NCBI GenBank assembly: GCA_963665295.1
Contig: OY762209.1
Span: 1,344,001-1,408,000 of the forward strand
DNA length: 64,000 nt
Direction of reading: 5' to 3'
Origin: Syntrophorhabdaceae bacterium
GTDB lineage: Bacteria; Desulfobacterota; Syntrophorhabdia; Syntrophorhabdales; Syntrophorhabdaceae
Both the position numbers and the translations under genes were made by a program. The first letter of the stretch is position 1; the number at the start of each line of letters is the position of its first letter. The notes beneath the pieces are model-generated. The model was given only the letters and a program-made list of their open reading frames with translations, did not search any database and was not told the origin of the DNA. Shown here piece after piece: positions 11,859-61,257 of this stretch.

Positions 11859-12203
11859 TTAGAGACTCACAACGTGAGGCTCCGTTTTCTCCAGCCTCTC
11901 AATCCAAATCTGGGCAAGGACGCGTAGTTCCTGAATGTAGCTTACGTGGGAATTCTCTTCGGGAACGAGCTCGTCTAACACTTCAAACCGAAAAGATGAT
12001 TCTCCACAGGTTTTCCACTCTTCCTGCAACTCTCTGTTTCGATGATTTCCAAATTTCAACTCAGCCTTGTGTCTATTGAGTCTGGCACGCATATCAAGCC
12101 CGAAACCGATGTACGACCGGCCGTTTCCGATATTCCTGATTCTATATACCCCCATCGGCTGCTTGGCCTGCTTGTACTCCTTCTTTGCTGTTGATTTATC
12201 CAT
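11859..12203 (-). CDS. GIY-YIG nuclease family protein
   Basis: GVYRIRN...SYIG motif; LQEEW...G...F.FEVL; GAGG RBS before ATG 12203. Confidence 0.85.
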   Translation of the reverse strand: MDKSTAKKEYKQAKQPMGVYRIRNIGNGRSYIGFGLDMRARLNRHKAELKFGNHRNRELQEEWKTCGESSFRFEVLDELVPEENSHVSYIQELRVLAQIWIERLEKTEPHVVSL

Positions 12204-12239
12204 TGTCCTCTTTTCCACGTATATTAGGCGAACTACTCT

Positions 12240-12379
12240 GGGGACGCAATTGACCAGCTTGACAAAGGTCCCGCGTCTCCATTTTCGTCGATGCCATATT
12301 GTCCTCTTAATTGTCTTCCTTTGGAGAGGGGCATGTCAAGGGTTATTTACTTATTTACGGTCGTCCCCAATGCATCCCC
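12240..12379 (-). repeat. Diverged RAYT-end MITE-like element (GGGGACG...CGTCCCC)
   Basis: Right half GAGAGG..ATGTCAAGGG..TTATTTA.GG.CGTCCC.AATG aligns with the promoter arm of the 163-bp element; minus-strand TTGACA. Confidence 0.6.
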
Positions 12380-12515
12380 TAAGAATACAGTAACAGTTTA
12401 GTCCTCTCGGAACTTTTTCCAGCAAAATATTATGTCTAATTTGCACAACACCTTTGATTCCCTTGTTCCATGATGGTATTATAATAGAAGTACTACTACT
12501 CATGTGGAGGGTTCA

Positions 12516-12794
12516 ATGGAACAAATCGATCTTCTTAAAAGGCAGCGGGAGAGACTTAAGGAGGACATTGTCGCACAGCTGGATTTCTTCCTTATCGGGA
12601 CGGTGGCCAAGTCCCCTTCCATGACGGGCCACTCCCTTACCACAAAAGTGAAGGGGAAGACCGTAACCGTGTATGTGAGAAAACAGATTGCCGAGAAGGC
12701 GAAGGAGATGACGAAGCGGTACAAGATGATGTGGCTTCTCATACAGAAGCTTTCTAAGATCAACTGGGAGATACTGAAACAGGAGAGCGAGTGA
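12516..12794 (+). CDS. IS66 accessory ORF (DUF6788-like)
   Basis: 92 aa; GGAGG RBS; overlaps the transposase start (GTGA). Confidence 0.75.
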   Translation: MEQIDLLKRQRERLKEDIVAQLDFFLIGTVAKSPSMTGHSLTTKVKGKTVTVYVRKQIAEKAKEMTKRYKMMWLLIQKLSKINWEILKQESE

Positions 12795-16259: not shown

Positions 16260-16410
16260 GGGGGACTAAACTGTTACGTCGTCCGTAACAGTTTAGTCCT
16301 CTCGGAACTTTTTCCAGCAAAATATTATGTCTAATTTGCACAACACCTTTGATTCCCTTGTTCCATGATGGTATTATAATAGAAGTACTACTACTCATGT
16401 GGAGGGTTCA

Positions 16411-16689
16411 ATGGAACAAATCGATCTTCTTAAAAGGCAGCGGGAGAGACTTAAGGAGGACATTGTCGCACAGCTGGATTTCTTCCTTATCGGGACGGTG
16501 GCCAAGTCCCCTTCCATGACGGGCCACTCCCTTACCACAAAAGTGAAGGGGAAGACCGTAACCGTGTATGTGAGAAAACAGATTGCCGAGAAGGCGAAGG
16601 AGATGACGAAGCGGTACAAGATGATGTGGCTTCTCATACAGAAGCTTTCTAAGATCAACTGGGAGATACTGAAACAGGAGAGCGAGTGA
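16411..16689 (+). CDS. IS66 accessory ORF (DUF6788-like)
   Basis: Same protein as copy 1. Confidence 0.75.
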   Translation: MEQIDLLKRQRERLKEDIVAQLDFFLIGTVAKSPSMTGHSLTTKVKGKTVTVYVRKQIAEKAKEMTKRYKMMWLLIQKLSKINWEILKQESE

Positions 16690-18206
16690 AGAGGGTCTAT
16701 CCTCCATACGGCTACGATTGTCTTTATAAGGACAATTGCCCCCATCTTAACTTTCTCTCCACCCTATGGGTCTTTGGAGAATATGAGCGGGCCCATGAGG
16801 TGTACGAAGAGCATCTTCGGATTATCGATGTGTTCCGGGACAGGCTGGATGACACCATGAAGCGTATCCGTCTTTTAGAGAAGGAGAACGAGGAACTGAA
16901 GGCGAAGAATACCGCATTGCATCGAAGACAGTTCAAGGCGAACAAAAAACCGGAGCATGCGGTCTCTTTGGCAGGGAGGAAGCGCGGCGCTCCGGTCGGA
17001 CACCCCGGGTGGTTCAGGCCCGAGCCTGCCCGCGTGGATGCGACGGTTCACGTGCCCGCTCCCGATCGATGCCCCCATTGCGGGTCAGGCCCTCTTGTCC
17101 CCGGGGAAGGGATCCGTGAGCATGTGCAGGAAGACATTGTCATAAGACCCCGCACGGTGGTGAGACGGTATGTGCATAAGGAAGCATACTGTAGCCGTTG
17201 CGGGCGTTCTGTGGTGAAGGCGGCTCCCGACGAACTTCCGAATGCTCCTATCGGACCGGTTACGAAATCCGTTGCCTTATACTTGCGGTACAGGATAGGT
17301 ATGAGCTATCGAAAGGTAGAGGAAGTTATGAGGGAGGTCTTTGGTATACCCTTTGTCCCTGCGTCGGCAGTGGGGTTTGACAGGGCTGCGGCGAAAAGGG
17401 GGACACCTCTTTATGAAGACCTCCGGGAGAAGATACGCGCCTCGGAAATAGTTCATGCCGATGAGACATCATGGAGGAACGACGGGACCGGTCATTACGC
17501 GTGGTATGCGGGAAACGCCGATCTTGCCCTCTTCCATATCGACCGGCACCGCTCGACAGAAGTGGCTCAACATCTTCTCGGGGACAACTTCGACGGGGTG
17601 CTCATCACCGACCGCTATGCCGCGTATAACGGAGTTCATGCGAGAGAAAGGCAGACATGCCTTGCCCACCTTATCACCAGGGCCGGAGAATTGACCCGGG
17701 ATCTCGTCCTCATGGAGACAAGAGATACAAAAGCGGAGGCGTTCTGTGATGCGGTCGGGAGGCTCTTCTCGGATGCCTGCGCCGCGGGCGGGGATCTTCT
17801 TAAGGGAAAGAGAGAGTGGGGAGATGCTCCCCGCATCGAGAAGCAATTGAGAGCAACCCTCGGGAAGATATGTGCAAAGCCCCTCAAGTATAAGCCGGCG
17901 GAAGTGCTCCGTACCTTCCTTACCGGCAAAGACCGGAAGTTTCTCTTCACGTTCCTTCGCTATCCGGGAGTACCACCTACCAACAACCAGGCAGAACAGT
18001 CGATCCGCTTCCTGGTGATCATGAGGAAGCTCATGTTCGGTACGCGGTCGGCAACGGGACTGAAGACCCACAGTATCCTGCCGAGTCTCATCATTACTTC
18101 CATGAGGCAAGGGAACGATCCACGGAAGTTCCTGGAGACGCTTCTGGTGTCGGATACCATGACGGCACAGGCGGCACTGTATCGCAATGGGGCGAGGGCT
18201 CCGTGA
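16686..18206 (+). CDS. IS66 transposase TnpC
   Basis: As copy 1 with a few substitutions (VFGIPF, STEV, AGELTRD, AEVL). Confidence 0.95.
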   Translation: MKRVYPPYGYDCLYKDNCPHLNFLSTLWVFGEYERAHEVYEEHLRIIDVFRDRLDDTMKRIRLLEKENEELKAKNTALHRRQFKANKKPEHAVSLAGRKRGAPVGHPGWFRPEPARVDATVHVPAPDRCPHCGSGPLVPGEGIREHVQEDIVIRPRTVVRRYVHKEAYCSRCGRSVVKAAPDELPNAPIGPVTKSVALYLRYRIGMSYRKVEEVMREVFGIPFVPASAVGFDRAAAKRGTPLYEDLREKIRASEIVHADETSWRNDGTGHYAWYAGNADLALFHIDRHRSTEVAQHLLGDNFDGVLITDRYAAYNGVHARERQTCLAHLITRAGELTRDLVLMETRDTKAEAFCDAVGRLFSDACAAGGDLLKGKREWGDAPRIEKQLRATLGKICAKPLKYKPAEVLRTFLTGKDRKFLFTFLRYPGVPPTNNQAEQSIRFLVIMRKLMFGTRSATGLKTHSILPSLIITSMRQGNDPRKFLETLLVSDTMTAQAALYRNGARAP

Positions 18207-48068: not shown

Positions 48069-50627
48069 TCACTCTTTGTACAATCGATAGCTGTTTCTTC
48101 CCGTCCTCTTCGCTTCATACATGGCGATGTCGGCCTTTTTTACCAGCGTGTCGATGTCATTGCCGTCCTGCGGGTAAAGGGAGACCCCAACGCTGGTGGT
48201 GACGGACACCTCATGGCCGGTCAGGGCAAAGGGGCTGCGGAATGTTTCAACAATCTTCCCCGCGATCACGTCTGCATAACCTTCCCACCCCACATCAGGG
48301 ATTATCACAAGATACTCATCTCCGCCCATGCGCGCTACCGTATCACCCCTTCTCAAAAGGTCGGTAAGGCGTTGCGCAACATTTATGAGCAGTGCGTCTC
48401 CTACATCATGACCGAGGGTGTCATTAATGTCCTTGAATCTATCAAGATCGAGAAGCATTACGGCGACTTTGTCTTTGTTGCGGTCGGCATTTGTCATTGC
48501 CAGAGTGAGCCTGTCGTTGAAAAGGGGGCGGTTGGGCAGTCCCGTCAGGGCATCATGGTAAGCGAGCCTTCTGATTGTTTGCTCCGCATCCTTACGGGCC
48601 GTGATATTTTCCATGGTTCCCTCGTAGTAAAGGATGTTTCCCGACTCGTCGCGAACGGACCTGGCGTTGATGGATGCCCAGATGGCGCTCCCATCTCTTC
48701 TGTGCAGCCTCGTTTCGAAGGCTTGTATGGTGTTGTTGTTTTCGAGGTTTTGCAGGTACTGCAAACGATCGGAAGGGTCCATATAGACCTCGCGGGCAAT
48801 ATCCGCACAGGCTTTGACCATCTCTTCCGGGGATGAGAATCCCAGCATTTTTGCCAGCGCCGGATTTGCGCTGAGAACACGTCCGTCCACGGTGGTCTGG
48901 AATATCCCCTCGATGGTATTTTCAAATATCTTCCGGTATTTTTCTTCGCTCCCCTTGAGCGCTTCTTCTGTTTCCTTCTTCCCCGTAATATCCCTCAAGG
49001 ATTCGATTGCGCCGATAGCATTCCCCTCTTTATCAAAGAGCAGCGAGGCGATTCCCCAACAATATGCCCCTTTACCATTGTATACGTTAGGCAGGTGGAT
49101 TTCGCCGTAGGTAGTCTTCCCTTTTCTTTCCACGAGGTCGTATAGCTTGTTGATCTCGGAATCAGGAGAAAACAGGAGATCGATGAGCATCGGCCTCCTT
49201 TTGCCGTAGAAAGGAACAGCGTAGTCATGATTGCCCTTCCCGAGCATGTCCTCCTTTCTTGTACCCGTCATTTCCTCCAGGGTTCTGTTCCAGGCAACCA
49301 CCTTCTTCTCGTTGTCGATGACAAAGGTTGCATCGGGGAGGAATTCGATAATATCGTGGAGCTTTCGGGAGGAGGTCTCCAGTTCCGCTGTCCGTTCCCT
49401 GACGCGGTTTTCCAACTCGCTATGAGCCTTGCGGAGGGCGCCTTCTGCTTCCTTCCGTCTCGTAATGTCTTCGTTTGTTCCCTCATAGTAGAGGACTGCG
49501 CCATCCCCGTCACGAACCACACGGGCATTAATCGAAATCCAGAATATGCCCCCATCCTTCCGGTACACCTCGGTTTCGAAACCTCTAATGGCGCCCTGCC
49601 CGGCAAGCAGGTTCTTAAATCTCCGCCTGTCTTCGGCGTTCACGTATATCTGGTTGCCTACGTCCGTAACGCCGGCCATCATCTCTTCTGGGGATGCAAA
49701 ACCAAACATCCGGGCAAGTGCGGGGTTGACGACAATAAGATGATCATCAACGGAGATCTGGAAGATCCCTTCTGCGGAGTTTTCGAAAATACTGCGATAC
49801 TTTTGTTCGGCCTGCCTTGCCGCTTGTTCTGCGTGTTTTCGTTCCGTCATATCCCGGAAGTACCAGACTCTCCCGTAATAATGGGCATCAGGCCCGAACA
49901 TGGGCGCCGAGTAGCGGTCAAATATTCTGCCGTCCTTGAGGAATATCTCGTCGCGGCTTGTTTCCTCTTTGTGGGCATAGAGTGCATTTACCCTGCAAAG
50001 AAACTCTTCGGGGTCCGCCAGTTTTTCAAACACGGACTGCAGGGTAAGTTCATCGGACCTTGTCTCCATGACATCGGGGGGAATCCCCCACATTTTGACG
50101 AATTGCCCGTTGTAAGAGAGAATCCTGCCGGTTCCGTCCACTACGAGAATCCCGTCGATAGATGCCTCCTGCTGCGTGGAGAGAAGTATGTTCCTGAATG
50201 CAAGCTCCGCCTCTGCTTTTTTGCTCTCAGTGATGTCTTCGCAGCTTACGAGTGTCTCGCCGGCGGCGAGTTCGACAGGGATGAAGCTGATGATCTTTTC
50301 TGCCCCGTCTTTGCACGTAACGGTAAAGATGCAGGGGGTCCTTTCGCCCTTTACGTGGGCGCGCCGATGCTTTTTCAGGTCATCATGCCACATGGAGACA
50401 ACCTTTCGTCGGTATTTTATATCAGGGTACGCTTTTCTGAACCACGTCCTCCCGTCGGGTATATCAGAAAGGTCATAGCCGAAAGTCTCCGTGAATTTGC
50501 TGTTGAGATACGTGTAGGTCCCATCCCTCGCAATAACCGCGATGCCGAAAGGCGCATTTTCGGTGAGAATATGGAAATCGTTCCGTCCGGAAGGGAGAAT
50601 ACCTTCTCCTCCCTGGTTTCTCGTCAT
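48069..50627 (-). CDS. Multi-PAS diguanylate cyclase
   Basis: About five PAS domains; DALTGLPNR, RRGD I-site, GGDEY; start uncertain. Confidence 0.9.
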   Translation of the reverse strand: MTRNQGGEGILPSGRNDFHILTENAPFGIAVIARDGTYTYLNSKFTETFGYDLSDIPDGRTWFRKAYPDIKYRRKVVSMWHDDLKKHRRAHVKGERTPCIFTVTCKDGAEKIISFIPVELAAGETLVSCEDITESKKAEAELAFRNILLSTQQEASIDGILVVDGTGRILSYNGQFVKMWGIPPDVMETRSDELTLQSVFEKLADPEEFLCRVNALYAHKEETSRDEIFLKDGRIFDRYSAPMFGPDAHYYGRVWYFRDMTERKHAEQAARQAEQKYRSIFENSAEGIFQISVDDHLIVVNPALARMFGFASPEEMMAGVTDVGNQIYVNAEDRRRFKNLLAGQGAIRGFETEVYRKDGGIFWISINARVVRDGDGAVLYYEGTNEDITRRKEAEGALRKAHSELENRVRERTAELETSSRKLHDIIEFLPDATFVIDNEKKVVAWNRTLEEMTGTRKEDMLGKGNHDYAVPFYGKRRPMLIDLLFSPDSEINKLYDLVERKGKTTYGEIHLPNVYNGKGAYCWGIASLLFDKEGNAIGAIESLRDITGKKETEEALKGSEEKYRKIFENTIEGIFQTTVDGRVLSANPALAKMLGFSSPEEMVKACADIAREVYMDPSDRLQYLQNLENNNTIQAFETRLHRRDGSAIWASINARSVRDESGNILYYEGTMENITARKDAEQTIRRLAYHDALTGLPNRPLFNDRLTLAMTNADRNKDKVAVMLLDLDRFKDINDTLGHDVGDALLINVAQRLTDLLRRGDTVARMGGDEYLVIIPDVGWEGYADVIAGKIVETFRSPFALTGHEVSVTTSVGVSLYPQDGNDIDTLVKKADIAMYEAKRTGRNSYRLYKE

Positions 50628-51029
50628 ATTTCGTCCCTCTGTCACGTTCGTGTCGTCAGGCGCCGGACAACGGTTTTCCGTTTCAAGTCCCTCCACCTTG
50701 ACGGTTCTACGTGTTATATTCGCACAAACAGGCAAAAGATTAAAGAGGCAAGGAGAACCCCGGGACCGCCTGCTGCGGTCCTCAAAGCTTCTCTCCCGGG
50801 GAGCTGCACGAACCGACTGCCGCACTATCGGCGTGTCAAGGGGTGGACAACCATGAGGAAGAACCGGGCGTCCTGTGCCCGGACATGGAGAAGCAATTGA
50901 CCATCAAGGGTGACCCGAAAGGCACAGCACGTCCTCTTCGATACGCACGGGGGTTGCCGAATTGACATTTGTGCTATATTTATTGGTAGGGATCGTCTTA
51001 AGATAATCCTGCTTCAGGGGAGGTACACC

Positions 51030-51692
51030 TTGGAACAAATCATAAGGGAATACAATGAAGCCATATTCGACACCGACCGTGAAAAGGCGCTGAAGGTTGT
51101 CCGTGACGCCCTTGATAAAGGCGTCAGTCCCGAACAGGTGGTGTTCAAGCTCGTCATCCCCGCCATCGAATCGATGATCAAGTCTATCAGCGAAGATGGC
51201 GATGCGAGTCTCGCCCAACACTTTATGGCCTCCCAGATAGGGGCGGAAGTGGTTGAAGAGATGATCCCCAGATTCGAACGTCGCCCGGACGTTATCGGTC
51301 GCGTGGTGATCGGGACATCCCAGGGGGACTTTCACGGACTGGGTAAGCGGATTGTCACCGGATGTCTGAGGGTCTACATGATCGAGGTTACCGACCTTGG
51401 ACTCAACGTTTCACCCGCGCGTTTCGTCGATGAGGCTGTTGTGCGCAACGCGCAAGTGATCGGCGTATCTTCCATGATGGTGCATACTGCCAGGGGGGAG
51501 AACGGATGTCTCAAAGTACGGCAGATTCTCGAAGAACGAGGTCTCGAGGACAGGATCAAGGTAGTTGTCGGCGGAGCGCCTTACCGTTTTGACCACGAGT
51601 TATATAAGACGGTGCATGCGGATGCCTGGGCAGAGAACGGCATCGTAGCGGGGAGAGTCATCACGGACCTCATCAGGGAGGTGAGCAGATGA
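51030..51692 (+). CDS. Corrinoid (B12-binding) protein with cap domain
   Basis: GDFHGLGK (DxHxxG), SSMM, VGGAP; GGAGG RBS before TTG 51030. Confidence 0.9.
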   Translation: MEQIIREYNEAIFDTDREKALKVVRDALDKGVSPEQVVFKLVIPAIESMIKSISEDGDASLAQHFMASQIGAEVVEEMIPRFERRPDVIGRVVIGTSQGDFHGLGKRIVTGCLRVYMIEVTDLGLNVSPARFVDEAVVRNAQVIGVSSMMVHTARGENGCLKVRQILEERGLEDRIKVVVGGAPYRFDHELYKTVHADAWAENGIVAGRVITDLIREVSR

Positions 51693-52732
51693 TTACGGGA
51701 ATGGAAAGGCTTGTTGCCGCAGTGAATGGAGAGCCATCGGACCGCATTCCCGTATTCTGCAACCTTTTGGACCAGGGGGCGAGGGAATTGGGTTTGTCTC
51801 TGAAAGAATATTACTCGAAAGGCGAGTATGTTGCGGAAGGGCAACTCAGGATGCGAGAAAAATATGGGTACGACAATCTATGGAGCCTCTTTTATGTGGG
51901 GAAGGAAGCCGAACTTCTGGGGTGCAGGAAGATAGTCTTCGCAGAGGACGGCCCACCCAACGTAGGGCAAATGGTGATCAGGACCTACGACGATGTAGAA
52001 AGACTGGAGATCCCCAATGATGTATCCGGCCATCCCGCCTTCCAGGAATCGTTAAAATGCCTTAGAATCCTTCGCGCCGAAGCAGGGGGCAAGTATCCTA
52101 TCTGCGCATACATCACTGCATCCATGACCCTTCCGGCCATCCTTATGGGAATGGAACGATGGATCGAACTGCTCCTCATGGGTCCGGTTGACGTTCGCGA
52201 CGAACTTCTCGCGAAATGCTCGGACTTCTTCCGAAAGGAAATCGCGGCCTATCGAGATGCCGGTGCGGACGTGTTCGTCTATTCAAACCCCTTCGGCTCC
52301 ACCGACTTCATCTCCATGAAGTTCTTCAAGGAGGTCTCCCTCCCGTGGATGGAGCGGGACTTCAAGGGGGTAGACACGGGGGGCGTGGTTTATTACTGCG
52401 GCAGCTCACCGTTCAACAACGTGATCGACACGGTGATTGAACGACTTGGCATAACGGCCTTTTATCTGAGTCCTATGGATGACATCGTCGAGGCAAAGCG
52501 GATAATCGCGGGAAGAGGGCTATGCTGCGGCGTTATCAACGATATCAAGCTCATCGACTGGTCAAAAGAGGAGATAAGAGGCGAGGTCCGCAGGATGATT
52601 GACCAGGGTATGCCGGGAGGGCGGTTCCTCTTTGGAACGCTGGTCATGCCTTATGGTATCCCCGAAGAGAACATCAGGACCATGCTCGGAGCGGCCTACG
52701 AATTCGGAAGCTGCAAGAACGGGCGGCAATGA
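51689..52732 (+). CDS. UroD / MtaA-CmuA family protein
   Basis: ERL.AA..G...DRIPV, EAELLG, P.ENI; ATGA overlap. Confidence 0.85.
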   Translation: MITGMERLVAAVNGEPSDRIPVFCNLLDQGARELGLSLKEYYSKGEYVAEGQLRMREKYGYDNLWSLFYVGKEAELLGCRKIVFAEDGPPNVGQMVIRTYDDVERLEIPNDVSGHPAFQESLKCLRILRAEAGGKYPICAYITASMTLPAILMGMERWIELLLMGPVDVRDELLAKCSDFFRKEIAAYRDAGADVFVYSNPFGSTDFISMKFFKEVSLPWMERDFKGVDTGGVVYYCGSSPFNNVIDTVIERLGITAFYLSPMDDIVEAKRIIAGRGLCCGVINDIKLIDWSKEEIRGEVRRMIDQGMPGGRFLFGTLVMPYGIPEENIRTMLGAAYEFGSCKNGRQ

Positions 52733-53301
52733 TGGCCGAGGAGCGGCTTCTCCTTGCGGGGTGCGGCATTCTGCGCAAAGAGATCAGGTTTCTCATTAAA
52801 AAGAACGGATGGCCCCTCGATGTATCCTTTCTTGATTCCGCCCTCCATGTCGACTTCGAGGCCCTCTCGAAGGGCTTGATAAGCGTCCTTGGAAGGCATG
52901 CAGGACGAAGAGTGATCGTTTTCTACGGCGCATGTCATCCCCTCATGGAGAGGATACTCGACGAGGCAAAAGTGTGCAGAACTCCAGGGCAGAACTGCGT
53001 GGAAATGCTCCTTGGCCACGAACTGTTTACCCGGGAGCTGTCGCAGGGCGCCTTTTTCCTCCTGAAAGACTGGGCGCGGAGATTTGACGTTATTCTGAAA
53101 AGAACATTAGGAAATAACGAAGCAGTCTGGAAAGCCGTGTATCAGGAGGACAGAAAATACCTTGCCTGTATCCGCACGCCCTGTTCCGGGGATTTCAGTA
53201 TTGAAGCCGAAGCGGCAGGCGAGAAGGTGGGGCTGCCCCTCAAGTGGATGGATGCTTCCCTCGATCACCTTGAATCGGTGTTGCACGCAATGGTAACATA
53301 G
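52729..53301 (+). CDS. DUF1638 domain protein
   Basis: GCGILRKE, LH, YGAC, NCVEMLLG. Confidence 0.82.
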   Translation: MMAEERLLLAGCGILRKEIRFLIKKNGWPLDVSFLDSALHVDFEALSKGLISVLGRHAGRRVIVFYGACHPLMERILDEAKVCRTPGQNCVEMLLGHELFTRELSQGAFFLLKDWARRFDVILKRTLGNNEAVWKAVYQEDRKYLACIRTPCSGDFSIEAEAAGEKVGLPLKWMDASLDHLESVLHAMVT

Positions 53302-53318
53302 CAACGAAAAGGGACTTC

Positions 53319-54860
53319 ATGACCGAAATGATACACATAGGCAAAGATGAACTGAAGAGCCTGAAGGATCGTCTCGAAAAGCTGGCTTCGGAAAAATCGT
53401 ATCTCAATCTGCTTATCCACATGATGAGCAGATTAGGGACTGTGTCCGGCCTTGAAAACACGGTGGAAGCCATGTTGCAGGTGATTCTGAACAATATTGG
53501 CGGAACGAATCTTATCCTGTATTACTTTATTGACGATAGTATTTACTTCGCTGATGTTTTCGGTAAGAGGATGAAGCTCGATGTAATCGAGGACGCCTCT
53601 GTGAAGGAAGTCTTCCTGAGCCGGGAACCTGTCGTGCATGAACATGATTTCAACGACACGATGATGATGACTCCGGAATTTACAAAGGCAATGACCTGGA
53701 TATTTCCTCTTCTTGTAGGCTCCGATCTTGTGGGGATTTTGAAGATGGACGGAATGCACATGGGGACCGGCGCCTTGAGGCAACAATTGCCCACCTTCTT
53801 CAGCTATGCGGCCCTCATACTGAAAAACGTGATACTTGGGCACACGAGGCTCCGGAAGGCCTATGACGAGGCGCGGCAGACAAACGCGGAACTCATGAAA
53901 GAGATTGCCGAACGCAGGCGGGCAGAAGAAGCGTTGCTGAACAGCGAGGAGAAACTCAAAGCTGTTGTTTACGGGTCCCCGATCCCCCAATTCGTCATTG
54001 ACTCGGATCATGCGGTCGTCTATTGGAATAAAGCGCTGGAAGAAGTCACGGGAATCAGGGCATCGGAAGTGGTAGGCACAAGCCAGCACTGGCAGGCGTT
54101 CTACGGTACGGAGAGGCCCTGCATGGTTGACTTGATGGTAGAAGAAAGAGTTGAAGAAATCACCGAACTCTATGGGGAGAAGTGTACCACGTCAAAATTG
54201 GTGACCGGCGCATTTGAGGTTACGGACTATTTCCCCGCCCTCGGCGAGGGGGGGAAGTGGTTATATTTTACCGGCGTGGCCATTCGGGACGCCGGTGGGC
54301 GGATTATCGGCGCCCTGGAGACCCTGGAAGACATCACCGAGCGCAAACGACTTGAAGAGAAGTTGCTTGCCCAGTCAATTATTGACGAACTTACCGGACT
54401 ATATAACCGACGGGGATTCCTGACCCTTGCCCAGCAGCAGTTGAACCTGGCGGAAAGGGCGAAGAAACGGATCGTCCTCTTCTTTATGGACCTGGACCGC
54501 ATGAAGTGGATCAATGACACGCTGGGTCACCAGACGGGCGATGCGGCGTTGGTTGAAGTTGCGTCGGCCCTCCGGCAGACATTCAGAAAATCGGACATTA
54601 TCGGTCGGATGGGAGGAGATGAATTTGCGGTCCTTGCCATAGATGCCGCCCCTCACGTGGAAGAGACCGTCACACGTTTGCGCAAGTGTCTCGACAATCG
54701 CGCCGGGCCGGGAACAAGCGGATACAGACTCTCCTTGAGCGTGGGCGCGGCGCATTTCGACGCCCACAGCCCAACTTCTCTCGACGACCTCATTTGCGAA
54801 GCGGATAACCTTATGTATGGGGAGAAAAGAATGAAACAGACGGTAACCCCTCTTTCGTAG
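53319..54860 (+). CDS. Sensor diguanylate cyclase (GAF-like, PAS, GGDEF)
   Basis: DELTGLYNRR, RKSD I-site, GGDEF. Confidence 0.92.
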   Translation: MTEMIHIGKDELKSLKDRLEKLASEKSYLNLLIHMMSRLGTVSGLENTVEAMLQVILNNIGGTNLILYYFIDDSIYFADVFGKRMKLDVIEDASVKEVFLSREPVVHEHDFNDTMMMTPEFTKAMTWIFPLLVGSDLVGILKMDGMHMGTGALRQQLPTFFSYAALILKNVILGHTRLRKAYDEARQTNAELMKEIAERRRAEEALLNSEEKLKAVVYGSPIPQFVIDSDHAVVYWNKALEEVTGIRASEVVGTSQHWQAFYGTERPCMVDLMVEERVEEITELYGEKCTTSKLVTGAFEVTDYFPALGEGGKWLYFTGVAIRDAGGRIIGALETLEDITERKRLEEKLLAQSIIDELTGLYNRRGFLTLAQQQLNLAERAKKRIVLFFMDLDRMKWINDTLGHQTGDAALVEVASALRQTFRKSDIIGRMGGDEFAVLAIDAAPHVEETVTRLRKCLDNRAGPGTSGYRLSLSVGAAHFDAHSPTSLDDLICEADNLMYGEKRMKQTVTPLS

Positions 54861-54942
54861 CTCCCGGACCCTTTGCCGTAATAGCGAGCGTCTCCGGGCA
54901 TCTTTGAAGGGGAACCTGAAGCGCCGCATAGCGCCTTCTAAG

Positions 54943-56863
54943 CCGAAGTTCCCCGCCCAATATTAACCCATCACCTTGATATTCCAATGATTATGGCAGA
55001 AATTGATTTCCCGTTACTGGCTACAGTCCGAGGAGGGCAAGGGCGCGGGCCTGGAGAGGTGTCGGATCAGTAAGAAGGGTGAAGGCCGGGGCCATGGAGT
55101 CCAAAACCATCCTGCACCGGTTTTTGCATCGGGTCCCCAGTGCGGCAAGGAGGGTACGGAAGCTCTGGACGGGAAGGCCGTCAGGGGTGAGCTTGGTGGT
55201 CTTCTTTTTCTTTGCGGAAGAAGATGACTCCGCGGGCTTTACCGGGTCTCTCGTCGTTCGTGAGAGGGGAAGCTCCTCATCGTCGAAGAGCAGCGGCGTA
55301 AGGGCCTCCCTCATATGCCACTCTACGTAATAGGCGAGGGTGCAGAGAAAGATGTGGGCTCGCACGTGATCCTCGGTACGGTGGTGAATGGGACGGACGA
55401 GAAGATCGATGCCCTTCAAGGTCCTGAAGGCCCGCTCTACCCGGGCAAGGTTCTTGTAGTTCCGTACCACATCGGCGGGAGGAAGGGCTGGTTCACTCGT
55501 ACGGATCACATAGATCCCGTCGAGGGCTTCTTCTTCGGTGATTGACTCCTCGTTCCGGGCGAATGAGAAGGACCCGTCTCCGATGGTAAGGATAAAGTGC
55601 TTCGCCATCTTGTGATCGTTGACTACCGCGCCGACTTTCTTCCCTATCTCCGCTGCGGAAAGAGGCGTCCTTGTCCTTCTCCCGACCGCCCGTACAATGG
55701 AGGACAACTTCTTTTCCGTCACATCGAGGAGCGCGTTTCTTTTCCTCTTTCTCTCTTCGGCAAGAAGGGGGTTGAAGCAAGCGATGAGCCTTTCCCCCGG
55801 ATACTCGGGAGAGGTGATTTCCGCAAAGTCCTGGGTATCGAAGAGGGACATCTGGATGCTCCCCTGTCCCACAAGCTCGCGTATGGCGGAAGACCTGAGG
55901 GCCGATATCCACCCTATGCCGGGCATCTCCTTTATCTTTGTAATCTGTGTCTCCGTAAGCATGCCCCTGTCGCCCACGAGGACGAGGTGATCGAGACCGA
56001 ATCTTTCTTTGAGCTTTGCCGTCTGGTCGGGAATGGTAGAGGGATCGCCCGTATTCCCCGGATAGACGGTAACTGCAACAGGTCGGCCTTCGTGATCGGT
56101 GAGTACTCCATAGACGATGATCCTCTTTCCCTTTTCATCCCGGTCATGGCCGAACTGCGCAAGGGGACAGGTGTGGCCCTCGTAGTAACTGCTCGTCACA
56201 TCGTAGAGCACGAGCGAGCCCTCGGTAAGGTGCTTATTCGCCAGCTTCTTCTCGATCCGCTCCTGTCTTGCCAAAAGCCAGTCCAGGGCATCATAGAGTT
56301 CGTCCTCATCGGCATCTGCAACCGAGAGTTCCTCCGCCACCGAAGTAGTATGCCAGAGCCTCGTAGTTGCTAATTTCGATGAGGGGTGGATGAGGCGTTC
56401 CACGATCATGGCGATTACGAGGTCTCTCTCCCTTCCAGGCTTCGAGGCAATGACCGTATCAAGGCCAAGCTTCTTTATTGTCCCGAGTATGGCCTCCACA
56501 TGGCCGTGGGGGAGAGACTGCTCAACCTTAAAGGCTTCCTTCGGAGAGACGAGAGACTCCCCTTTCAATACACGCCTCAAGAGCTCGATCTTCTCTTCCG
56601 GCCAATCAGTGAGGTTTGCGACTGTCTTCTTCTTTATCTTTTTGCCTTCCCTCCATGCCTCCCTCAAGAGGATGGCGGGCCGGGAGTTGCGGTTGGGGAT
56701 GCTTTCGATGTACATGGAACATATATAGCAAATAGCTTACCTACATGTCAAGTACATAATGCACTATTACATGGCAACAAGTAGAAGATATGATTATCAC
56801 CAACTTTACATAATTTCAACGGGATAGAGTGATATTGGGGGGATTTCACAGGGGGAACTTCGG
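54943..56863 (-). mobile_element. IS1634-family element, copy 3
   Basis: Same IRs; duplication TCTAAG overlapping the MFS stop codon. Confidence 0.95.
55021..56715 (-). CDS. IS1634-family transposase
   Basis: Protein identical to copy 1. Confidence 0.93.
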   Translation of the reverse strand: MYIESIPNRNSRPAILLREAWREGKKIKKKTVANLTDWPEEKIELLRRVLKGESLVSPKEAFKVEQSLPHGHVEAILGTIKKLGLDTVIASKPGRERDLVIAMIVERLIHPSSKLATTRLWHTTSVAEELSVADADEDELYDALDWLLARQERIEKKLANKHLTEGSLVLYDVTSSYYEGHTCPLAQFGHDRDEKGKRIIVYGVLTDHEGRPVAVTVYPGNTGDPSTIPDQTAKLKERFGLDHLVLVGDRGMLTETQITKIKEMPGIGWISALRSSAIRELVGQGSIQMSLFDTQDFAEITSPEYPGERLIACFNPLLAEERKRKRNALLDVTEKKLSSIVRAVGRRTRTPLSAAEIGKKVGAVVNDHKMAKHFILTIGDGSFSFARNEESITEEEALDGIYVIRTSEPALPPADVVRNYKNLARVERAFRTLKGIDLLVRPIHHRTEDHVRAHIFLCTLAYYVEWHMREALTPLLFDDEELPLSRTTRDPVKPAESSSSAKKKKTTKLTPDGLPVQSFRTLLAALGTRCKNRCRMVLDSMAPAFTLLTDPTPLQARALALLGL

Positions 56864-58614: not shown

Positions 58615-58708
58615 AAGGTGAAAAGGGCAAACTCGCCGAAAGACGGGGGCGCAAAGCCGATGGCCTAAGGGGGTGAAGGGATTCTACCTATGGCGGCAGG
58701 GCTGCCGG
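58615..58708 (+). ncRNA. Cyclic di-GMP-I (GEMM) riboswitch
   Basis: GGGCAAAC...GAAA tetraloop...GCGCAAAGCC...GGCCTAA (receptor)...ATGGCGGC.GGGCTGCC follows the GEMM-I layout; between a promoter and a c-di-GMP gene pair. Confidence 0.88.
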
Positions 58709-58905
58709 TTCCCTTTGCCGGTTTCGCATTCCTCCTTGCTATCGATAGTATTCCCTAGGATATAACGGTATGAGCGTCGGCCAACGCCGGAAAAGCGGTG
58801 CTTTGTGGAGATAACGTGACCGGCGGAGTCGCTCTTGACATCCGCGCCCTGAGCCGGAATGGCAGTGAACTTGACTAATGACTGATTGATGGAGAATGTT
58901 TATCC

Positions 58906-59760
58906 ATGAAACTCGACTCATGGTATTTCAACCTTGCCTTTGCCGTTCTTGTATCCGTCTTCTTCGTTGCGGTGGCGCCCGTTTCCGGCTATCCGGAAGA
59001 GACGCTCCTTATCGGAGGCGCGGGGACAAACACCGGCGCCATGAAACTGATGGCCGAGGACTTTCGAAAGCGCCGTCCCCGTGCGACGATCGTGGTGCTC
59101 CCGAGTATCGGCACTTCCGGGGCCATCAAGGCCGTGGCCGAAGACAGGATTGATATCGGACTGACCAGTCGTGCCCTGAACCCGGAGGAGCGCGACGCGG
59201 AAATCATCGAGGAACCTTACGGTCAGACCGCCCTGATCTTCGGAGTGCCCCAGTCAAATCCGGCTGAAGGGCTGACCCTTGCGGAGATTGAGGACATATA
59301 TGCGCGGAAGCGTACTGCCTGGCCGGACGGAACGCCCATAAGGCTTATTCTTCGTCCCCAAAAGGATACCCTTTCCATATACCTTGCAGGCATCAGTCCC
59401 GGGCTGAAGTCTGCGTCCGAAAAGGCCCGCTCCGTGCCCGGGGTCTTTGTGGGAATGACCGACCAGGATGCGGCCGCTCAGATCGAGAAGACGCCGGGCG
59501 CCTTCGGGGTAATGAGCGCCTCTCTTATCTCATCGGAAAACAGAAGGATCAAGGCCCTCTCCGTCCAGGGGACAGCCCCTACACCCTCCAATGTGGCCGC
59601 CGGCAAGTATCCGTACGTCCTGACACTGTTCCTGATTTACAAGAGGGACAGGTGTAAGGGGGCGGTGAAGGACTTTGTGGAGCTTGTCTTTTCGAAGACC
59701 GGCAGGAACCGCCTCTATGAAACCAATCATGTCGCCCTGCCGCGAGCTACCAGGAAGTGA
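58906..59760 (+). CDS. PstS-like substrate-binding protein
   Basis: Signal peptide; IGGAGT, SIGTSGAIKAV, DIGLTSR, GKYP. Confidence 0.82.
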   Translation: MKLDSWYFNLAFAVLVSVFFVAVAPVSGYPEETLLIGGAGTNTGAMKLMAEDFRKRRPRATIVVLPSIGTSGAIKAVAEDRIDIGLTSRALNPEERDAEIIEEPYGQTALIFGVPQSNPAEGLTLAEIEDIYARKRTAWPDGTPIRLILRPQKDTLSIYLAGISPGLKSASEKARSVPGVFVGMTDQDAAAQIEKTPGAFGVMSASLISSENRRIKALSVQGTAPTPSNVAAGKYPYVLTLFLIYKRDRCKGAVKDFVELVFSKTGRNRLYETNHVALPRATRK

Positions 59761-59772
59761 GGTGACAGCCCT

Positions 59773-61257
59773 TTGAACCTACAGCAGCCAAGACCGCCCA
59801 TTACAAGACTTATGAGCCATCTGGGAGCTTTGGCGGCGGCCGTTTTCGCCGTCACAATACCCCTTATATACTACTATTCCACTGTCGTTGAGATGCGCCA
59901 TGCCCTTGCGATAGAAACTGCCTTCTTCGCAAAGTCCGTTGAAAAGACTATTCAGGACAGCCCCGATATGTGGAGGTTCGAGAAGGCAAGACTGACGGAA
60001 CTTGCGTCGCAACCCTCTTTCTCGGGGAAACAGGATGAAAGGGAGATATGGACTTCAGGGGGCGCAATGCTGGTAAAGACCGATTTCGTCGCACAACGTC
60101 CTTGTGTGACTGTCCTGTCAACCCTATTTGACTCGGGGGTGCCTGTCGGTGAGGTCCGGGCGAGACGATCGATTCGCACCCCGACGCTCTACACCGCCCT
60201 GTTGGGAATCTTCAGCTTCTTCTTCGGTTATTTCATATATCTTATCTTCCGTACCTATCCCATCAGAACCCTCGATGGAGTCCTGGCCGACCTTCGCCTT
60301 GAAAAGGAAAGGACGGAAAAGACCCTCCAGGCCATCGGCGACGGGGTTATTTCAGTTGACTCCAGGGGAAGGATCAGCTTGATGAACAGAATGGCGGGAT
60401 CCCTTGTGGGTTGGGACGCCTCCGAGGCAATGGGGCGGCCTCTGGAAGACGTGTACGTCTTGCGTGACAGCCAGGAAGGCCTGCGCGGAGGGAAGGGCGG
60501 TCTCAATATTCTCGTGAGCAAGGAAGGAATCGAGTATGTTATTGAAGAACTCCGCACGCCCGTACCGGAGATGGAGACAGGCAAGGAAGGGACCGTCATT
60601 ATTTTCAAAGACATCTCCGGACGCGATGAGGCTGCCCAGGTGCGACAGAACAACGAACGGAGCATCGCGCGGTTGAGAAAAGGCCTGGGTGCGACGGTCG
60701 AGGCCATTGCCGCGATCGTCGAGACGAGGGACCCCTATACGGCGGGTCACCAGCGGAGGGTAGCCGATCTGGCGAGGGCCATTGCCACGGCCATGGGCCT
60801 CTCGGCCGACCGGATCGACGGCATCCGTATGGCGGCGAGCATTCACGACATAGGGAAGATATCCATCCCTGCGGAAATCCTCAGTAAACCGACGAAGCTG
60901 AGAAACACGGAATCCGAATTGATCAAAGAGCACCCCCGGGCGGGCTACGAAATATTGAAGGATATCGACTTTCCGTGGCCCATTGCGAGGATGGTTTTGG
61001 AGCACCATGAGAGGGTAGACGGGTCGGGATATCCGGAGGGATTGACGGGAGAGCACGTCCTCGTGGAGTCAAGGATTATCGCGGTCGCCGATGTGGTGGA
61101 GGCGATCGCCTCACATCGTCCCTATCGGCCCGCACTCGGGATCGACGCCGCACTGCAGGAAATCGTCAGGAACAAAGGCGTCTTCTATGATCCTGACGTA
61201 GTCGATACGTGCATTCAACTCATAAAGGAAAAGGGCTACAAGATGAAGGAGGATTGA
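59773..61257 (+). CDS. Membrane PAS / HD-GYP phosphodiesterase
   Basis: 2 TM helices, PAS, RDPYTAGH, HDIGK, HHER.DGSGYP. Confidence 0.92.
   Translation: MNLQQPRPPITRLMSHLGALAAAVFAVTIPLIYYYSTVVEMRHALAIETAFFAKSVEKTIQDSPDMWRFEKARLTELASQPSFSGKQDEREIWTSGGAMLVKTDFVAQRPCVTVLSTLFDSGVPVGEVRARRSIRTPTLYTALLGIFSFFFGYFIYLIFRTYPIRTLDGVLADLRLEKERTEKTLQAIGDGVISVDSRGRISLMNRMAGSLVGWDASEAMGRPLEDVYVLRDSQEGLRGGKGGLNILVSKEGIEYVIEELRTPVPEMETGKEGTVIIFKDISGRDEAAQVRQNNERSIARLRKGLGATVEAIAAIVETRDPYTAGHQRRVADLARAIATAMGLSADRIDGIRMAASIHDIGKISIPAEILSKPTKLRNTESELIKEHPRAGYEILKDIDFPWPIARMVLEHHERVDGSGYPEGLTGEHVLVESRIIAVADVVEAIASHRPYRPALGIDAALQEIVRNKGVFYDPDVVDTCIQLIKEKGYKMKED

Follow-up and report, generated by a model that had tools for sequence, protein, structure and literature searches.

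Organization of the locus

The window, i.e., the whole stretch of 64,000 nucleotides of Syntrophorhabdaceae DNA that we analyzed, contains a cassette of four genes, all on the + strand, which encode a corrinoid protein of 220 aa (51030-51692), a URO-D-fold, MtaA-like protein of 347 aa (51689-52732), a DUF1638 protein of 190 aa (52729-53301), and a GAF-PAS-GGDEF signalling protein of 513 aa (53319-54860) assigned by Pfam and NCBIfam. The initial annotation had described the locus as four co-oriented genes ending in a GAF/PAS/GGDEF protein, and inspection of the open reading frames together with Pfam searches confirmed this description. The ATGA overlaps at the corrinoid/URO-D and URO-D/DUF1638 junctions can both be read in the sequence, as can the gap of 17 nt between the TAG of the DUF1638 gene and the ATG of the cyclase gene. 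The same approach bore out that neither a RamA/RACo gene nor a second methyltransferase gene is adjacent to the cassette in the window. The cassette is flanked upstream by a divergent PAS-GGDEF gene and downstream by a gene for a DDE transposase (Pfam). Because an IS element adjoins the cassette, the latter may be a recent arrival in its host. The URO-D and DUF1638 genes are each the sole copy in the host genome, whose single RACo gene lies about 3.5 Mb from the cassette, inside a CODH/ACS cluster.

Recurrence of the cassette across genomes

Using the URO-D-like protein, we retrieved 41 related loci, 40 of which are close relatives; the contigs of 36 of these 40 continue past the trio formed by the corrinoid, URO-D-like and DUF1638 genes. 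A protein with the GAF domain is encoded, in the same order, at all 36 informative loci, and it is the product of the next gene in 34 of them. This recurrence shows that the arrangement is not due to chance. It also agrees with the expectation of a recurring trio whose signalling partner keeps its N-terminal domain while the output (GGDEF, kinase, HD-GYP) varies. Furthermore, in a reciprocal search with a profile of the GAF domain, the trio was present directly upstream in 4/4 other genomes (one of which, G099, is the genome of locus L022), and in the loci examined this GAF domain is never seen apart from the corrinoid trio, which it either adjoins or is fused to. The spacing is tight: in 26 of 29 loci the GAF gene is estimated to start within 30 nt of the DUF1638 stop, with a median of -1, and the corrinoid/URO-D junctions are mostly overlaps of 4 nt. 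Sequence comparison shows, then, that the GAF protein is inherited together with the trio, that the genes are translationally coupled, that the DUF1638 and GAF domains are occasionally fused, and that the outputs behind the GAF domain are interchangeable. The alternative situation, a trio that in most cases lacks a signalling gene, does not apply to the cassette subfamily; it does describe DUF1638 proteins in general.

The commonest output behind the GAF domain is a histidine kinase (29 of 37 proteins). GGDEF outputs are found in 5 of 162 family proteins and an HD-GYP output at locus L085 and in 1 of 149 representatives; further outputs are SpoIIE domains and lone receivers. Outputs can switch over short evolutionary distances, as the GAF domains of a kinase (P0122) and of a receiver protein (P0127) are 81% and 64% identical, respectively, to that of the window. 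The window thus contains a rare cyclase-output form of a cassette that otherwise mostly feeds histidine kinases. With a first-look filter that scored at most seven candidates per genome, 5 of the 401 genomes sampled from the phylum proved to carry the cassette, and the same sampling revealed it in 0/11 genomes of the same family and not in the genome of the same genus. All carriers named in record titles are anaerobic or microaerophilic and come from sediments, digesters and groundwater.

A RACo/RamA-like gene is located directly upstream of the cassette, in the same orientation, at 7 (by Pfam) to 9 (by sequence cluster) of the 41 loci, which points to Co(I) chemistry. No other protein cluster recurs across phyla beside these loci, from which it follows that a second methyltransferase is not part of the cassette. 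The neighbours are mostly additional signalling proteins. At one locus (L027) the cassette adjoins the cobalamin synthesis genes CbiG/CbiJ, which would suit a sensor of cobamide supply, in which the apo or holo state of the corrinoid protein, the most obvious ligand binder, reports B12 availability to the signalling protein. However, just one of the 32 upstream neighbours that were examined is a B12 synthesis gene, a search of the window for a cobalamin riboswitch found none, and the conserved URO-D-like enzyme, DUF1638 and the RACo genes would all be left unexplained, so that we consider such a function highly unlikely.

The corrinoid protein

The most probable start codon of the corrinoid gene is the TTG at position 51030, which is preceded by the ribosome binding site GGGGAGG and results in a protein of 220 aa, matching the length of its homologues. 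The protein consists of a four-helix cap (B12-binding_2, PF02607, 25.2 bits) and a Rossmann B12 domain (B12-binding, PF02310, 72.9 bits), both scoring above the Pfam cut-offs. It retains all B12 motifs; the DxHxxG motif already noted in the initial annotation reads DFHGLG and is present in 40/40 family members. The cap contains a cassette-specific motif, SLAQHF, whose core L[AS]QH is found in 36 of the 40. Its relatives in the PDB are MttC, MtmC and MtaC. The best NCBIfam match, TIGR02370, reaches 97.1 bits, below its cut-off of 215.3, and the protein stays far under the cut-offs of all equivalog models.

The combination of a B12-binding domain and a four-helix cap would also be expected of a B12 light sensor of the CarH/AerR/photocobilin kind driving a diguanylate cyclase. 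The protein shows weak sequence similarity to a CarH model (E 8e-5) and to the photocobilin chains 8j2w/x/y (E 3e-5 to 5e-5), which include a GGDEF protein. This is in line with a light sensor, as are the cassette-specific His of the cap and the existence of B12 photoreceptor-cyclase fusions, reported in two studies (PMC10979010, PMC11796333). In the second of these, the light signature is given as GxxW, EH, GxxH and GxxxP (PMC11796333). Inspection of the corrinoid family shows that the upper-ligand elements of this signature are missing: the cap EH is present in 0/40 members and the cap GxxW in 1/40, and neither is present in the window protein. GxxH does occur in 40/40 members, but it is the lower-ligand motif common to all such domains. 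In addition, the nearest families are corrinoid proteins of methyltransferases, a URO-D-like partner and a RACo activator would be superfluous for a light sensor, and the habitats given in the record titles are mostly dark and anoxic. The cassette shares with CarH, AerR and the photocobilins, among them the cyclase-linked AbDPcob, weak sequence similarity and a B12-binding domain tied to a signalling output (PMC10979010, PMC11796333), which in one photoreceptor case is a GGDEF domain. Yet the cassette possesses neither the adenosyl-contact signature nor a bilin-binding domain, and its B12 domain and its output reside in different proteins, the former accompanied by DUF1638, a partner that resembles an enzyme and, in some cases, RACo. 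The presence of RACo next to some cassettes, together with the absence of a CarH signature, favours cobalt redox or methyl chemistry over light, and light sensing is therefore very improbable.

The URO-D-like protein

The fold of the second protein is clear from its match to the Pfam URO-D model (PF01208, E 1.7e-47, 162.5 bits, positions 3-345 of 346) and its alignment to Methanosarcina mazei MtaA (4ay7, E 8e-13). The score against TIGR01463 (MtaA/CmuA), on the other hand, is 94.9 bits, under the cut-off of 235.4. The zinc ligands of MtaA-type enzymes are H-x-C ... C. In the alignment to 4ay7, from which the ligand positions were taken, 'VLHICGN' is aligned over 'VVYYCGS' and 'PGCGIAP' over 'FGTLVMP'. 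Both substitutions had been spotted before, i.e., YYCG in place of HxC and the lack of the late Cys (TLV instead of GCG), and the alignment supports them; two of the three zinc ligands are thus missing. The remaining Cys of 'YYCG' is not conserved across the clade (it reads 'YFNG' at L033, for example), and neither the alignment nor family conservation identified replacement catalytic residues. Without a zinc site or such residues, methyl transfer by this protein is not assured. Nevertheless, it would be wrong to call the protein degenerate, as the initial annotation did, because the cassette proteins form a distinct clade (SH-aLRT 98) whose members are 53-84% identical across phyla; the clade is under strong constraint.

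The DUF1638 protein

The DUF1638 protein matches PF07796 over positions 1-161 of 161 with an E-value of 1.3e-26 and a score of 93.9 bits, above the gathering threshold of 27. It belongs to a divergent subfamily: cassette members match the Pfam model at about 1e-25 to 1e-30, versus 1e-41 to 1e-49 for the common type in the same phylum. Its AlphaFold2 (AF2) model has a pLDDT of 93.2, and our search for a solved structure specifically related to it found none. In the family alignment, C12, C69, H70 and C90 are invariant and H40 and C152 nearly so.

Fusions of DUF1638 to the cassette GAF domain occur in L031/P0249 and P0137 (both kinases), P0126 (PAS-GGDEF) and L085 (HD-GYP); P0126 is 69% identical to the window DUF1638 and 47% identical to the window cyclase over 368 residues. 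Eight relatives of the window DUF1638 are longer than it is; six of these carry signalling domains and two have no further Pfam domain. DUF1638 is absent, however, from six loci with complete context (L007, L008, L011, L014, L024 and L041), and therefore it cannot be the sole link to the GAF domain.

The invariant cysteines and histidine are compatible with the cassette being a redox or oxygen sensor, in which the signal would be the conversion of Co(I) to inactive Co(II), or oxidation of the DUF1638 Cys/His residues, rather than a methyl donor of any sort, and the URO-D-like protein would do no more than hold the corrinoid protein or open its cap. Co(II) corrinoid proteins are what activators of the RACo type recognise. 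The adjacency of such activators in 7-9 of the 41 loci, the anaerobic or microaerophilic nature of all named carriers and the absence of the zinc site from the URO-D-like protein fit with this possibility. It is, nonetheless, an unlikely one, as a mere holder would hardly be expected to remain 53-84% identical across phyla, and DUF1638 is dispensable at the six loci just mentioned.

The GAF domain and the cyclase

The N-terminus of the signalling protein (aa 1-215; 53319-53963) had been called GAF-like, and structure prediction upholds this: the AF2 model of the first 215 aa folds as a GAF domain (pLDDT 86.8) with a long N-terminal helix, an alpha/beta core and a long C-terminal helix. Foldseek matched it to the GAF domains of PDE5A, Nlh and phytochromes with a probability of 1.0 and returned 284 PDB matches at E<=0.001, almost all GAF domains among the matches listed; the nearest ESM Atlas clusters are all GAF as well. 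No Pfam GAF model matches the window protein at E<=0.01 (residues 1-200 have no Pfam match), and Pfam gave no match over the N-terminal domain in 37 relatives either. The domain has 367 representatives at E<=1e-30. In 159 of 162 proteins it starts no later than residue 30, and in the other three it lies behind DUF1638. The family alignment contains no conserved Cys or His, and hence no hint of a cofactor or methyl acceptor.

It is followed by a PAS domain (aa 212-344; 53952-54350; Pfam PAS, PAS_4 and PAS_9) and a GGDEF domain (aa 354-506; 54378-54836), the latter matching PF00990 (E 8.9e-36, 123.5 bits) and TIGR00254 (128 bits versus a cut-off of 37). The GGDEF active-site motif and the RxxD inhibition site (RKSD) are intact, the translation reading 'RKSDIIGRMGGDEF', and the protein is predicted to have cyclase activity.

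GAF domains are mostly small-molecule binders (PDE5A, NifA, phytochrome), and the cassette GAF contains a conserved 'TPEFTKA' loop of low model confidence, which in the model is poorly ordered and would lie near the pocket region. It is conceivable, then, that the corrinoid/URO-D-like pair adds a methyl group to a small molecule, or removes one from it, and that the product binds the GAF pocket, in which case no protein contact would be needed; the six loci with a cassette lacking DUF1638 would be in accordance with this. The repeated DUF1638-GAF fusions and the strictly N-terminal position of the GAF domain suggest protein-protein coupling instead, and tight gene coupling is not needed for a diffusible product, which makes this scenario quite improbable.

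A proposed sensory unit versus a metabolic methyltransferase

The arrow could also be reversed or absent, with the trio being a metabolic methyltransferase and the GAF protein its dedicated regulator or merely co-expressed. At 14 of 40 other DUF1638 loci, corrinoid and URO-D-like genes are both present, often in multiple copies, in catabolic-looking clusters; L060 and L064 encode DUF1638 fused to a hydantoinase-type ASKHA ATPase beside such genes, and L076 has the same fusion with no corrinoid or URO-D-like gene within 6 kb. None of these 40 loci matches the cassette GAF profile, and one of them, L085, is a divergent cassette. Moreover, the one paper found to mention the putative Geobacter orthologues treats them as possible components of the acetyl-CoA pathway (PMC7894505). 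Against a metabolic role, recurrent neighbours of the cassette do not include a second methyltransferase, a transporter or a C1 enzyme, and most genes beside it encode signalling proteins; no DNA-binding output was found among the proteins checked; outputs as diverse as kinase, cyclase, HD-GYP and PP2C phosphatase are easier to reconcile with a common input than with a common target; and the cassette URO-D clade is distinct from the catabolic-looking paralogues. Thus, we assign little probability to it.

The trio precedes the same sensor domain in many phyla, and hence the cassette is probably an undescribed route from B12 chemistry to a cellular signal, judging from comparative sequence data; our literature search found no published description of it. 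We put the probability at roughly 45% that c-di-GMP synthesis is controlled by the state of the corrinoid protein, which the URO-D-like partner would set and which would be read via DUF1638 and the GAF domain. The four genes would then form one sensory unit with the corrinoid protein as receptor. The URO-D-like partner may transfer a methyl group between a small-molecule donor and Co(I), and thereby set the cobamide state, or, as a minimal alternative, may simply bind one state of the corrinoid protein. The cobalt would be kept reducible by a RamA/RACo-type activator, whose gene is part of the cassette in some genomes but lies outside it in the genome of the window. DUF1638 might dock on the corrinoid protein and relay its methyl-Co(III), Co(I) or inactive Co(II) state to the N-terminal GAF domain, from which the PAS domain and dimeric helices would switch the GGDEF domain and change c-di-GMP. 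The proposal of the initial annotation that the module had been repurposed as a sensor controlling c-di-GMP gains from the recurrence with GAF signalling proteins, whereas light, one of the signals it listed, is disfavoured.

It should be noted that RACo is absent from most cassettes, that of the window included, which counts against this reading. So does a G. sulfurreducens proteome in which GSU2386/2387, if they are orthologues, escaped detection (PMC7894505). Similarly, a methyl-based state would have no evident route for being reset without a second methyltransferase.

Relationship to known systems

The cassette resembles the methylotrophic corrinoid systems (MtaC/MtaA, MtbC/MtbA and MtsA/B in methanogens, and the bacterial O-demethylases, which have a RamA-type activator) in combining a cap-plus-Rossmann DxHxxG protein with a coupled URO-D-fold partner and, in some genomes, with a RamA/RACo-type activator in the cluster. 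It differs from them in lacking the HxC...C zinc site, a second methyltransferase and C1 pathway genes, in the separate URO-D clade, in scores well below the NCBIfam cut-offs of these families (97 vs 215 and 95 vs 235 bits), and in always being joined to a GAF signalling protein.

A second parallel is the split methionine synthase of Phaeobacter inhibens, where a stand-alone DUF1638 protein (PGA1_c13340) ends the cap-plus-B12-domain operon and is functionally linked to corrinoid reactivation (PMC5764234, PMC12478193). Price et al. 2018 likewise state that the split B12 methionine synthase requires DUF1638 and that a RamA-like protein co-occurs with it (PMC5764234). The output of that system is methionine synthesis, whereas the partner in the cassette is a signalling protein and its DUF1638 is divergent.

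Finally, compared with GAF sensors in general, the cassette GAF is set apart by its lack of a Pfam GAF match and of conserved Cys/His residues, and by its confinement to corrinoid trios in the loci examined. Like phytochrome-linked diguanylate cyclases, PDE GAFs and other GAF sensor kinases and cyclases, it is N-terminal and has a long helical linker, and the window protein shares with GAF-linked cyclases the PAS domain and the dimeric GGDEF output.

A four-gene cassette among c-di-GMP genes

The initial annotation had described four co-oriented genes, joined by two ATGA overlaps and then a 17-nt gap and ending in a GAF/PAS/GGDEF protein, and the open reading frames, Pfam matches and junctions bear this out. 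The first gene (51030-51692, + strand) encodes a corrinoid protein of 220 aa with a B12-binding_2 cap and a B12-binding domain (Pfam); its likely start is the TTG at 51030, which is preceded by GGGGAGG, and its DxHxxG motif is kept, reading DFHGLG, as had been noted. Its best NCBIfam model is TIGR02370 (methyltransferase-cognate corrinoid), at 97 bits against a cut-off of 215, and its nearest solved relatives are MttC, the Moorella cobalamin-binding protein (1y80), MtmC and MtaC. It is followed on the same strand by a URO-D-fold protein (51689-52732; full-length Pfam URO-D match, E 1.7e-47), a DUF1638 protein (52729-53301; Pfam) and a signalling protein (53319-54860), in which about 200 N-terminal residues without a Pfam match precede a PAS and a GGDEF domain. 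Read off the translation, the GGDEF motif and the RxxD site of this cyclase are both intact. The genome, one contig of 5.5 Mb, holds a single copy of the URO-D gene and of the DUF1638 gene. Thus, judged by gene calls, domains, motifs, junctions and copy numbers, the original observation was right in every detail.

The surroundings of the cassette, by which we mean this trio of genes together with the signalling gene, are a stretch rich in c-di-GMP genes. A PAS(x4)-GGDEF protein of 918 aa (48069-50825, - strand; Pfam) is encoded divergently, about 200 bp from the start of the cassette; by eye, one of its PAS domains resembles that of the cassette cyclase in an 'FYG..RP..DL' stretch. A c-di-GMP-I riboswitch (58616-58709, + strand; Rfam RF01051, 65.9 bits) lies 3.7 kb downstream, and behind it are a PBP_like_2 gene (58906-59760, +) and a PAS-HD_5 gene of the HD-GYP type (59773-61257, +); together they could form a c-di-GMP feedback unit downstream of the cassette cyclase. 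A scan of 50700-55100 gave counts of promoters and terminators not above those in shuffled sequence. According to Rfam, the window contains no cobalamin riboswitch, and it is highly improbable that the B12-binding protein serves to report on B12 supply.

The trio and the GAF domain occur together

When one genome per species was searched with the URO-D-like protein, 41 loci emerged, 40 of them at 53-80% identity. The carriers include Smithella, Geobacter, Desulfuromonadaceae, Desulfobacteraceae, Nitrospirota/Thermodesulfovibrio, Acidobacteriota, Bacteroidota, Ignavibacteriota, Planctomycetota, Hydrogenedentes, Methylococcaceae, Alphaproteobacteria and others. The corrinoid gene lies directly upstream of the URO-D-like gene in all 41 loci, in most of them with a 4-nt overlap. 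Five loci are uninformative as to what follows, four because they stop at a contig edge (L004, L027, L034, L040) and one because it is an outlier of 30% identity (L042). Every one of the 36 informative loci encodes a protein that begins with the N-terminal domain of the window cyclase, here called the cassette GAF; its gene is the next one in 34 of them, and comes after one to three other signalling genes in L008 and L041. In 26 of 29 loci, no more than 30 nt separate the DUF1638 stop from the estimated start of the GAF gene; the median distance is -1. Recurrence of the trio with the same N-terminal domain and interchangeable outputs had been named beforehand as support, and it is what we observed, the outputs across the family being kinase, receiver, GGDEF, HD-GYP and SpoIIE. 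In two metagenome bins the URO-D-like gene is interrupted, giving two ORFs (L019:4594-5631 and L038:8001-9034).

The association also holds in the reverse direction. When 401 genomes of the window's phylum were searched with a GAF profile, with at most seven candidates scored per genome, the cassette GAF was found in at least five, the window's own among them; in the other four, one of which is the genome of L022, the corrinoid, URO-D-like and DUF1638 genes are directly upstream (4/4). No cassette was found in the 11 same-family genomes examined, and a DDE transposase gene (DDE_Tnp_1; 55021-56715, - strand; Pfam) starts 160 bp past the end of the cyclase gene. Taken together, these two observations suggest that the cassette in the window is a recent acquisition.

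A GAF domain of its own kind with exchangeable outputs

Neither Pfam nor NCBIfam has a name for the N-terminal domain of the window protein, and Pfam has none for it in the relatives either. An AF2 model built from an alignment of 38 such domains (pLDDT 86.8) has a six-stranded alpha/beta core between two long helices, one N-terminal and one C-terminal. Foldseek matched the model to the GAF domains of PDE5A, Aquifex Nlh, NifA and phytochromes (probability 1.0, 10-16% identity), and its ESM Atlas neighbours are GAF clusters throughout. On the strength of this model, we regard the domain as a predicted GAF of its own kind. The same 38 domains have no conserved Cys or His; the best-conserved stretch outside the GAF core is the loop 'TPEFTKA', which is modelled with low confidence. 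The pocket of the GAF might bind a ligand made by the corrinoid/URO-D-like pair, a reading that we consider decidedly unlikely.

Searched with a profile of the domain, 1.84 billion representatives gave 545 proteins at E<=0.001, 367 of them at E<=1e-30. Of 162 family proteins, 159 have the domain beginning among their first 30 residues, and in the other three it stands behind a DUF1638 domain. By Pfam, 29 of the 37 GAF proteins of the loci are histidine kinases, many of them hybrid; the remaining eight comprise one with a receiver only, one bare GAF domain and six with PAS or GAF repeats only, two of which are cut by the end of the locus. A similar picture emerges from the best 149 GAF representatives (the window protein left out, and many being contig fragments): HATPase_c is present in 105, Response_reg in 43, PocR in three, GGDEF and DUF1638 in two each, and HD_5 (HD-GYP type) and SpoIIE in one each. 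GGDEF outputs occur in five of the 162 family proteins, namely the window protein, P0126, P0131, P0184 and P0195. Hence, the cassette in the window has an uncommon cyclase output, most of its relatives feeding phosphorelays. Outputs have been exchanged at short evolutionary distance, since a GAF 81% identical to that of the window is joined to a kinase (P0122) and one 64% identical to a receiver (P0127).

The genes near the cassettes are mostly signalling genes as well: lone receivers, a receiver-HD-GYP gene (L039), kinases, an MCP, and SpoIIE phosphatases. No DNA-binding output was found among the GAF proteins and neighbours checked. That the trio is a metabolic module equipped with its own regulator is in our view very doubtful. 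MEDS is the methanogen/methylotroph DcmR sensory domain, and in L018 a MEDS-domain histidine kinase (11931-14237) is encoded directly downstream of the cassette kinase.

The URO-D-like protein belongs to a constrained clade without the zinc site

Alignment to MtaA of M. mazei (4ay7) confirmed that the zinc-binding motif is altered, 'HIC' becoming 'YYC' (YYCG in the window protein), and that the late Cys is gone, 'GCG' becoming 'TLV'. The best 120 database matches have 72-84% identity and come from many phyla. In a tree of 50 URO-D-like sequences (a quick search, with long-branch warnings for the outsiders and L042 entered twice), the 38 sequences of GAF-linked loci form one clade with an SH-aLRT of 98, a stem length of 1.24 and short tips. 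The Cys of the window's 'YYCG' is unconserved in this clade, and the zinc site is truly absent from it. The protein had been called a degenerate MtaA/UroD; the loss of the zinc ligands stands, but 'degenerate' does not fit a protein that forms a constrained clade of its own, and for this reason we rejected the idea of a degenerate pseudo-enzyme. Taxa are mixed within the clade, with Acidobacteriota among Desulfuromonadales and a Patescibacteria-labelled bin paired with an alphaproteobacterium. This mixing and the patchy distribution point to spread of the cassette by gene transfer.

DUF1638 as a likely corrinoid module

DUF1638 is fused N-terminally to the GAF in two kinases (L031/P0249 and P0137), in the PAS-PAS-GGDEF protein P0126 and, with a weak GAF, in the PAS-PAS-HD-GYP protein of L085. 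The DUF1638 part of P0126 is 69% identical to that of the window over 189 residues, and its GAF begins ten residues further on, the alignment starting at residue 10 of the window cyclase; two genes that are 17 nt apart in the window are thus one gene in this relative. Six of eight longer relatives of the window DUF1638 carry signalling domains (GGDEF in one, a kinase in four, one of these with a receiver, and SpoIIE with HATPase_c_2 in one), and two have no further Pfam domain. On the other hand, DUF1638 is absent from six loci with complete context (L007, L008, L011 and L014, all from Nitrospirota, as well as L024 and L041), so that the GAF must be able to take input without it. We infer that DUF1638 is a bridge to the GAF, presumably through physical contact, in most lineages but not in all.

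In the family alignment C12, C69, H70 and C90 are invariant and H40 and C152 nearly so, a set that looks like a metal site. The DUF1638 model has a pLDDT of 93.2. A PDB sequence search for a solved relative gave nothing at E<=1, the best TM-scores of the model against the PDB by Foldseek were only 0.25-0.41, and a wide VIA search reached at best Z 8.6 over about 98 of 190 residues, matching Toprim, receiver and LacI/PBP halves. These matches are generically Rossmann-like and point to no specific structural relative.

By Pfam, DUF1638 occurs in 101 of the 401 phylum-sample genomes as against 5 for the cassette GAF, and none of 40 other DUF1638 loci that we fetched matched the GAF profile. Corrinoid and URO-D-like genes lie within 6 kb in 14 of these 40, often in multiple copies, an arrangement like that of catabolic clusters. 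Three of the 40 (L060:5840-8776; L064:3817-6684, - strand; L076:5871-8726) encode proteins of 951-978 aa in which DUF1638 is joined to Hydant_A_N and Hydantoinase_A. The fusion partner belongs to the hydantoinase-type ASKHA ATPases and weakly resembles the mutase reactivase MutL, and the fusions of L060 and L064 adjoin corrinoid and URO-D-like genes, a hint that DUF1638 acts together with ATP-dependent activators of corrinoid proteins. Passages of Price et al. (2018; PMC5764234) describe DUF1638 as needed for a split B12 methionine synthase and as co-occurring with a RamA-like activator, and part of a 2025 paper (PMC12478193) repeats a proposed role in recharging cobalamin. Based on the family alignment, the other DUF1638 loci, the ASKHA fusions and the study of Price et al. 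together, DUF1638 looks like a module acting on corrinoid proteins alongside ATP-dependent activators, which the cassette joins to a signalling protein.

Clues to the signal

In 7 to 9 of the 41 loci, the corrinoid gene is immediately preceded by a co-oriented gene for a RACo/RamA-like protein (Fer2, Raco_middle, RACo_C_ter); seven of these cases are confirmed by Pfam (L004, L005, L011, L014, L017, L032, L041) and two were added by sequence clustering (L012, L030). Activators of this type serve to regenerate Co(I), and their presence beside cassettes implies that the cobalt most likely cycles chemically. The only RACo in the window's genome sits inside a CODH/ACS cluster. We rejected the possibility that the pair is part of the Wood-Ljungdahl pathway because that cluster, with its own RACo, lies elsewhere in the genome, and because the cassette is found in Bacteroidota, Ignavibacteriota and Methylococcaceae. 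For GSU2386/2387, the putative Geobacter sulfurreducens counterparts, the one paper found to mention them regards them as possible acetyl-CoA-pathway parts that were undetected in the proteome (PMC7894505).

Light had been among the cues proposed for the cassette. The CarH-type light signature, as published (PMC11796333), consists of GxxW, EH, GxxH and GxxxP; of its adenosyl-contact elements among these, EH occurs in none of 40 cassette caps and GxxW in one, and we hold a light sensor to be extremely unlikely. Of 40 cassette corrinoid proteins, 36 carry a different cap motif, L[AS]QH (SLAQH in the window, residues 61-65, 51210-51224). Its His position is V, I or G in the solved MttC, MtmC and 1y80 and in two outgroup paralogues, and the His of SLAQHF might be a state-dependent upper axial ligand.

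The reading that we rate highest, with a probability of roughly 0.45, is that the cassette senses the state of the corrinoid protein. The URO-D-like partner and the activator would set the state of its bound cobalt, DUF1638 and the GAF would read that state through direct contacts, and the GGDEF domain would respond, the signal flowing from corrinoid to cyclase. The comparisons establish the anatomy, the co-occurrence seen from either side, the fusions, the exchange of outputs and the link with RACo; cofactor binding, methyl transfer, physical contacts, the direction of signalling and control of the cyclase are inferred. The main sub-alternative, a sensor of redox or oxygen pure and simple, we deem unlikely. 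A more far-reaching version of the corrinoid-state reading, possible though short of probable, is that the receptor derives from an entire corrinoid methyl-transfer half-reaction, made up of the corrinoid protein, a URO-D-fold methyltransferase and DUF1638 as adaptor, with a RamA-type activase keeping it reducible; the cobalt would hold a molecular memory in its methylation or oxidation state, which a dedicated GAF would read and convert into two-component phosphorylation or, in the window, into c-di-GMP. If so, enzyme chemistry serving as the sensor would constitute a new signal-input class, transferred across more than ten named bacterial lineages.

Relation to known systems

The cassette shares its component proteins with methylotrophic corrinoid systems; however, it falls below their family cut-offs and lacks both their zinc site and their second methyltransferase. 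Its sole likeness to B12 photoreceptors is the use of a B12 domain for signalling. To our knowledge, protein-based B12 signalling has so far meant light sensing (CarH, AerR, photocobilins), the only roles known for corrinoid methyltransferase pairs are catabolic or biosynthetic, and DUF1638 has no known function. Our literature searches, which covered few subscription journals, found no description of the cassette. If the corrinoid-state reading is correct, bacterial signalling would gain a new input class in a conserved cassette that couples the pair to kinases, cyclases, HD-GYP phosphodiesterases and PP2C phosphatases, and that would point to a small molecule or redox cue monitored by anaerobes of many phyla. 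It would also provide a role for DUF1638, a family genetically required for a split methionine synthase, and with the GGDEF version in the window the cue could be sought by simply measuring c-di-GMP synthesis in vitro.

Divergent variants

Outside the cassette clade, on long branches, are catabolic-looking paralogues, L042, L085 and a second copy from L007. In L007, a Nitrospirota bin, this second, divergent corrinoid/URO-D-like pair (15212-16902) lies 6 kb downstream of the cassette. It is preceded by a Cache kinase and a lone receiver, and the sequence at its zinc-motif position is 'FHHGG'. L085 (4205-8486), where corrinoid and URO-D-like genes are followed by an 855-aa DUF1638/weak GAF/PAS/PAS/HD_5 (HD-GYP) protein, is a version with a phosphodiesterase output. 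In L042 (7330-10035), the distant pair (30% identity) is followed by a GGDEF-matching ORF without the cassette GAF, and this may be an independent link of a corrinoid/URO-D-like pair to c-di-GMP.
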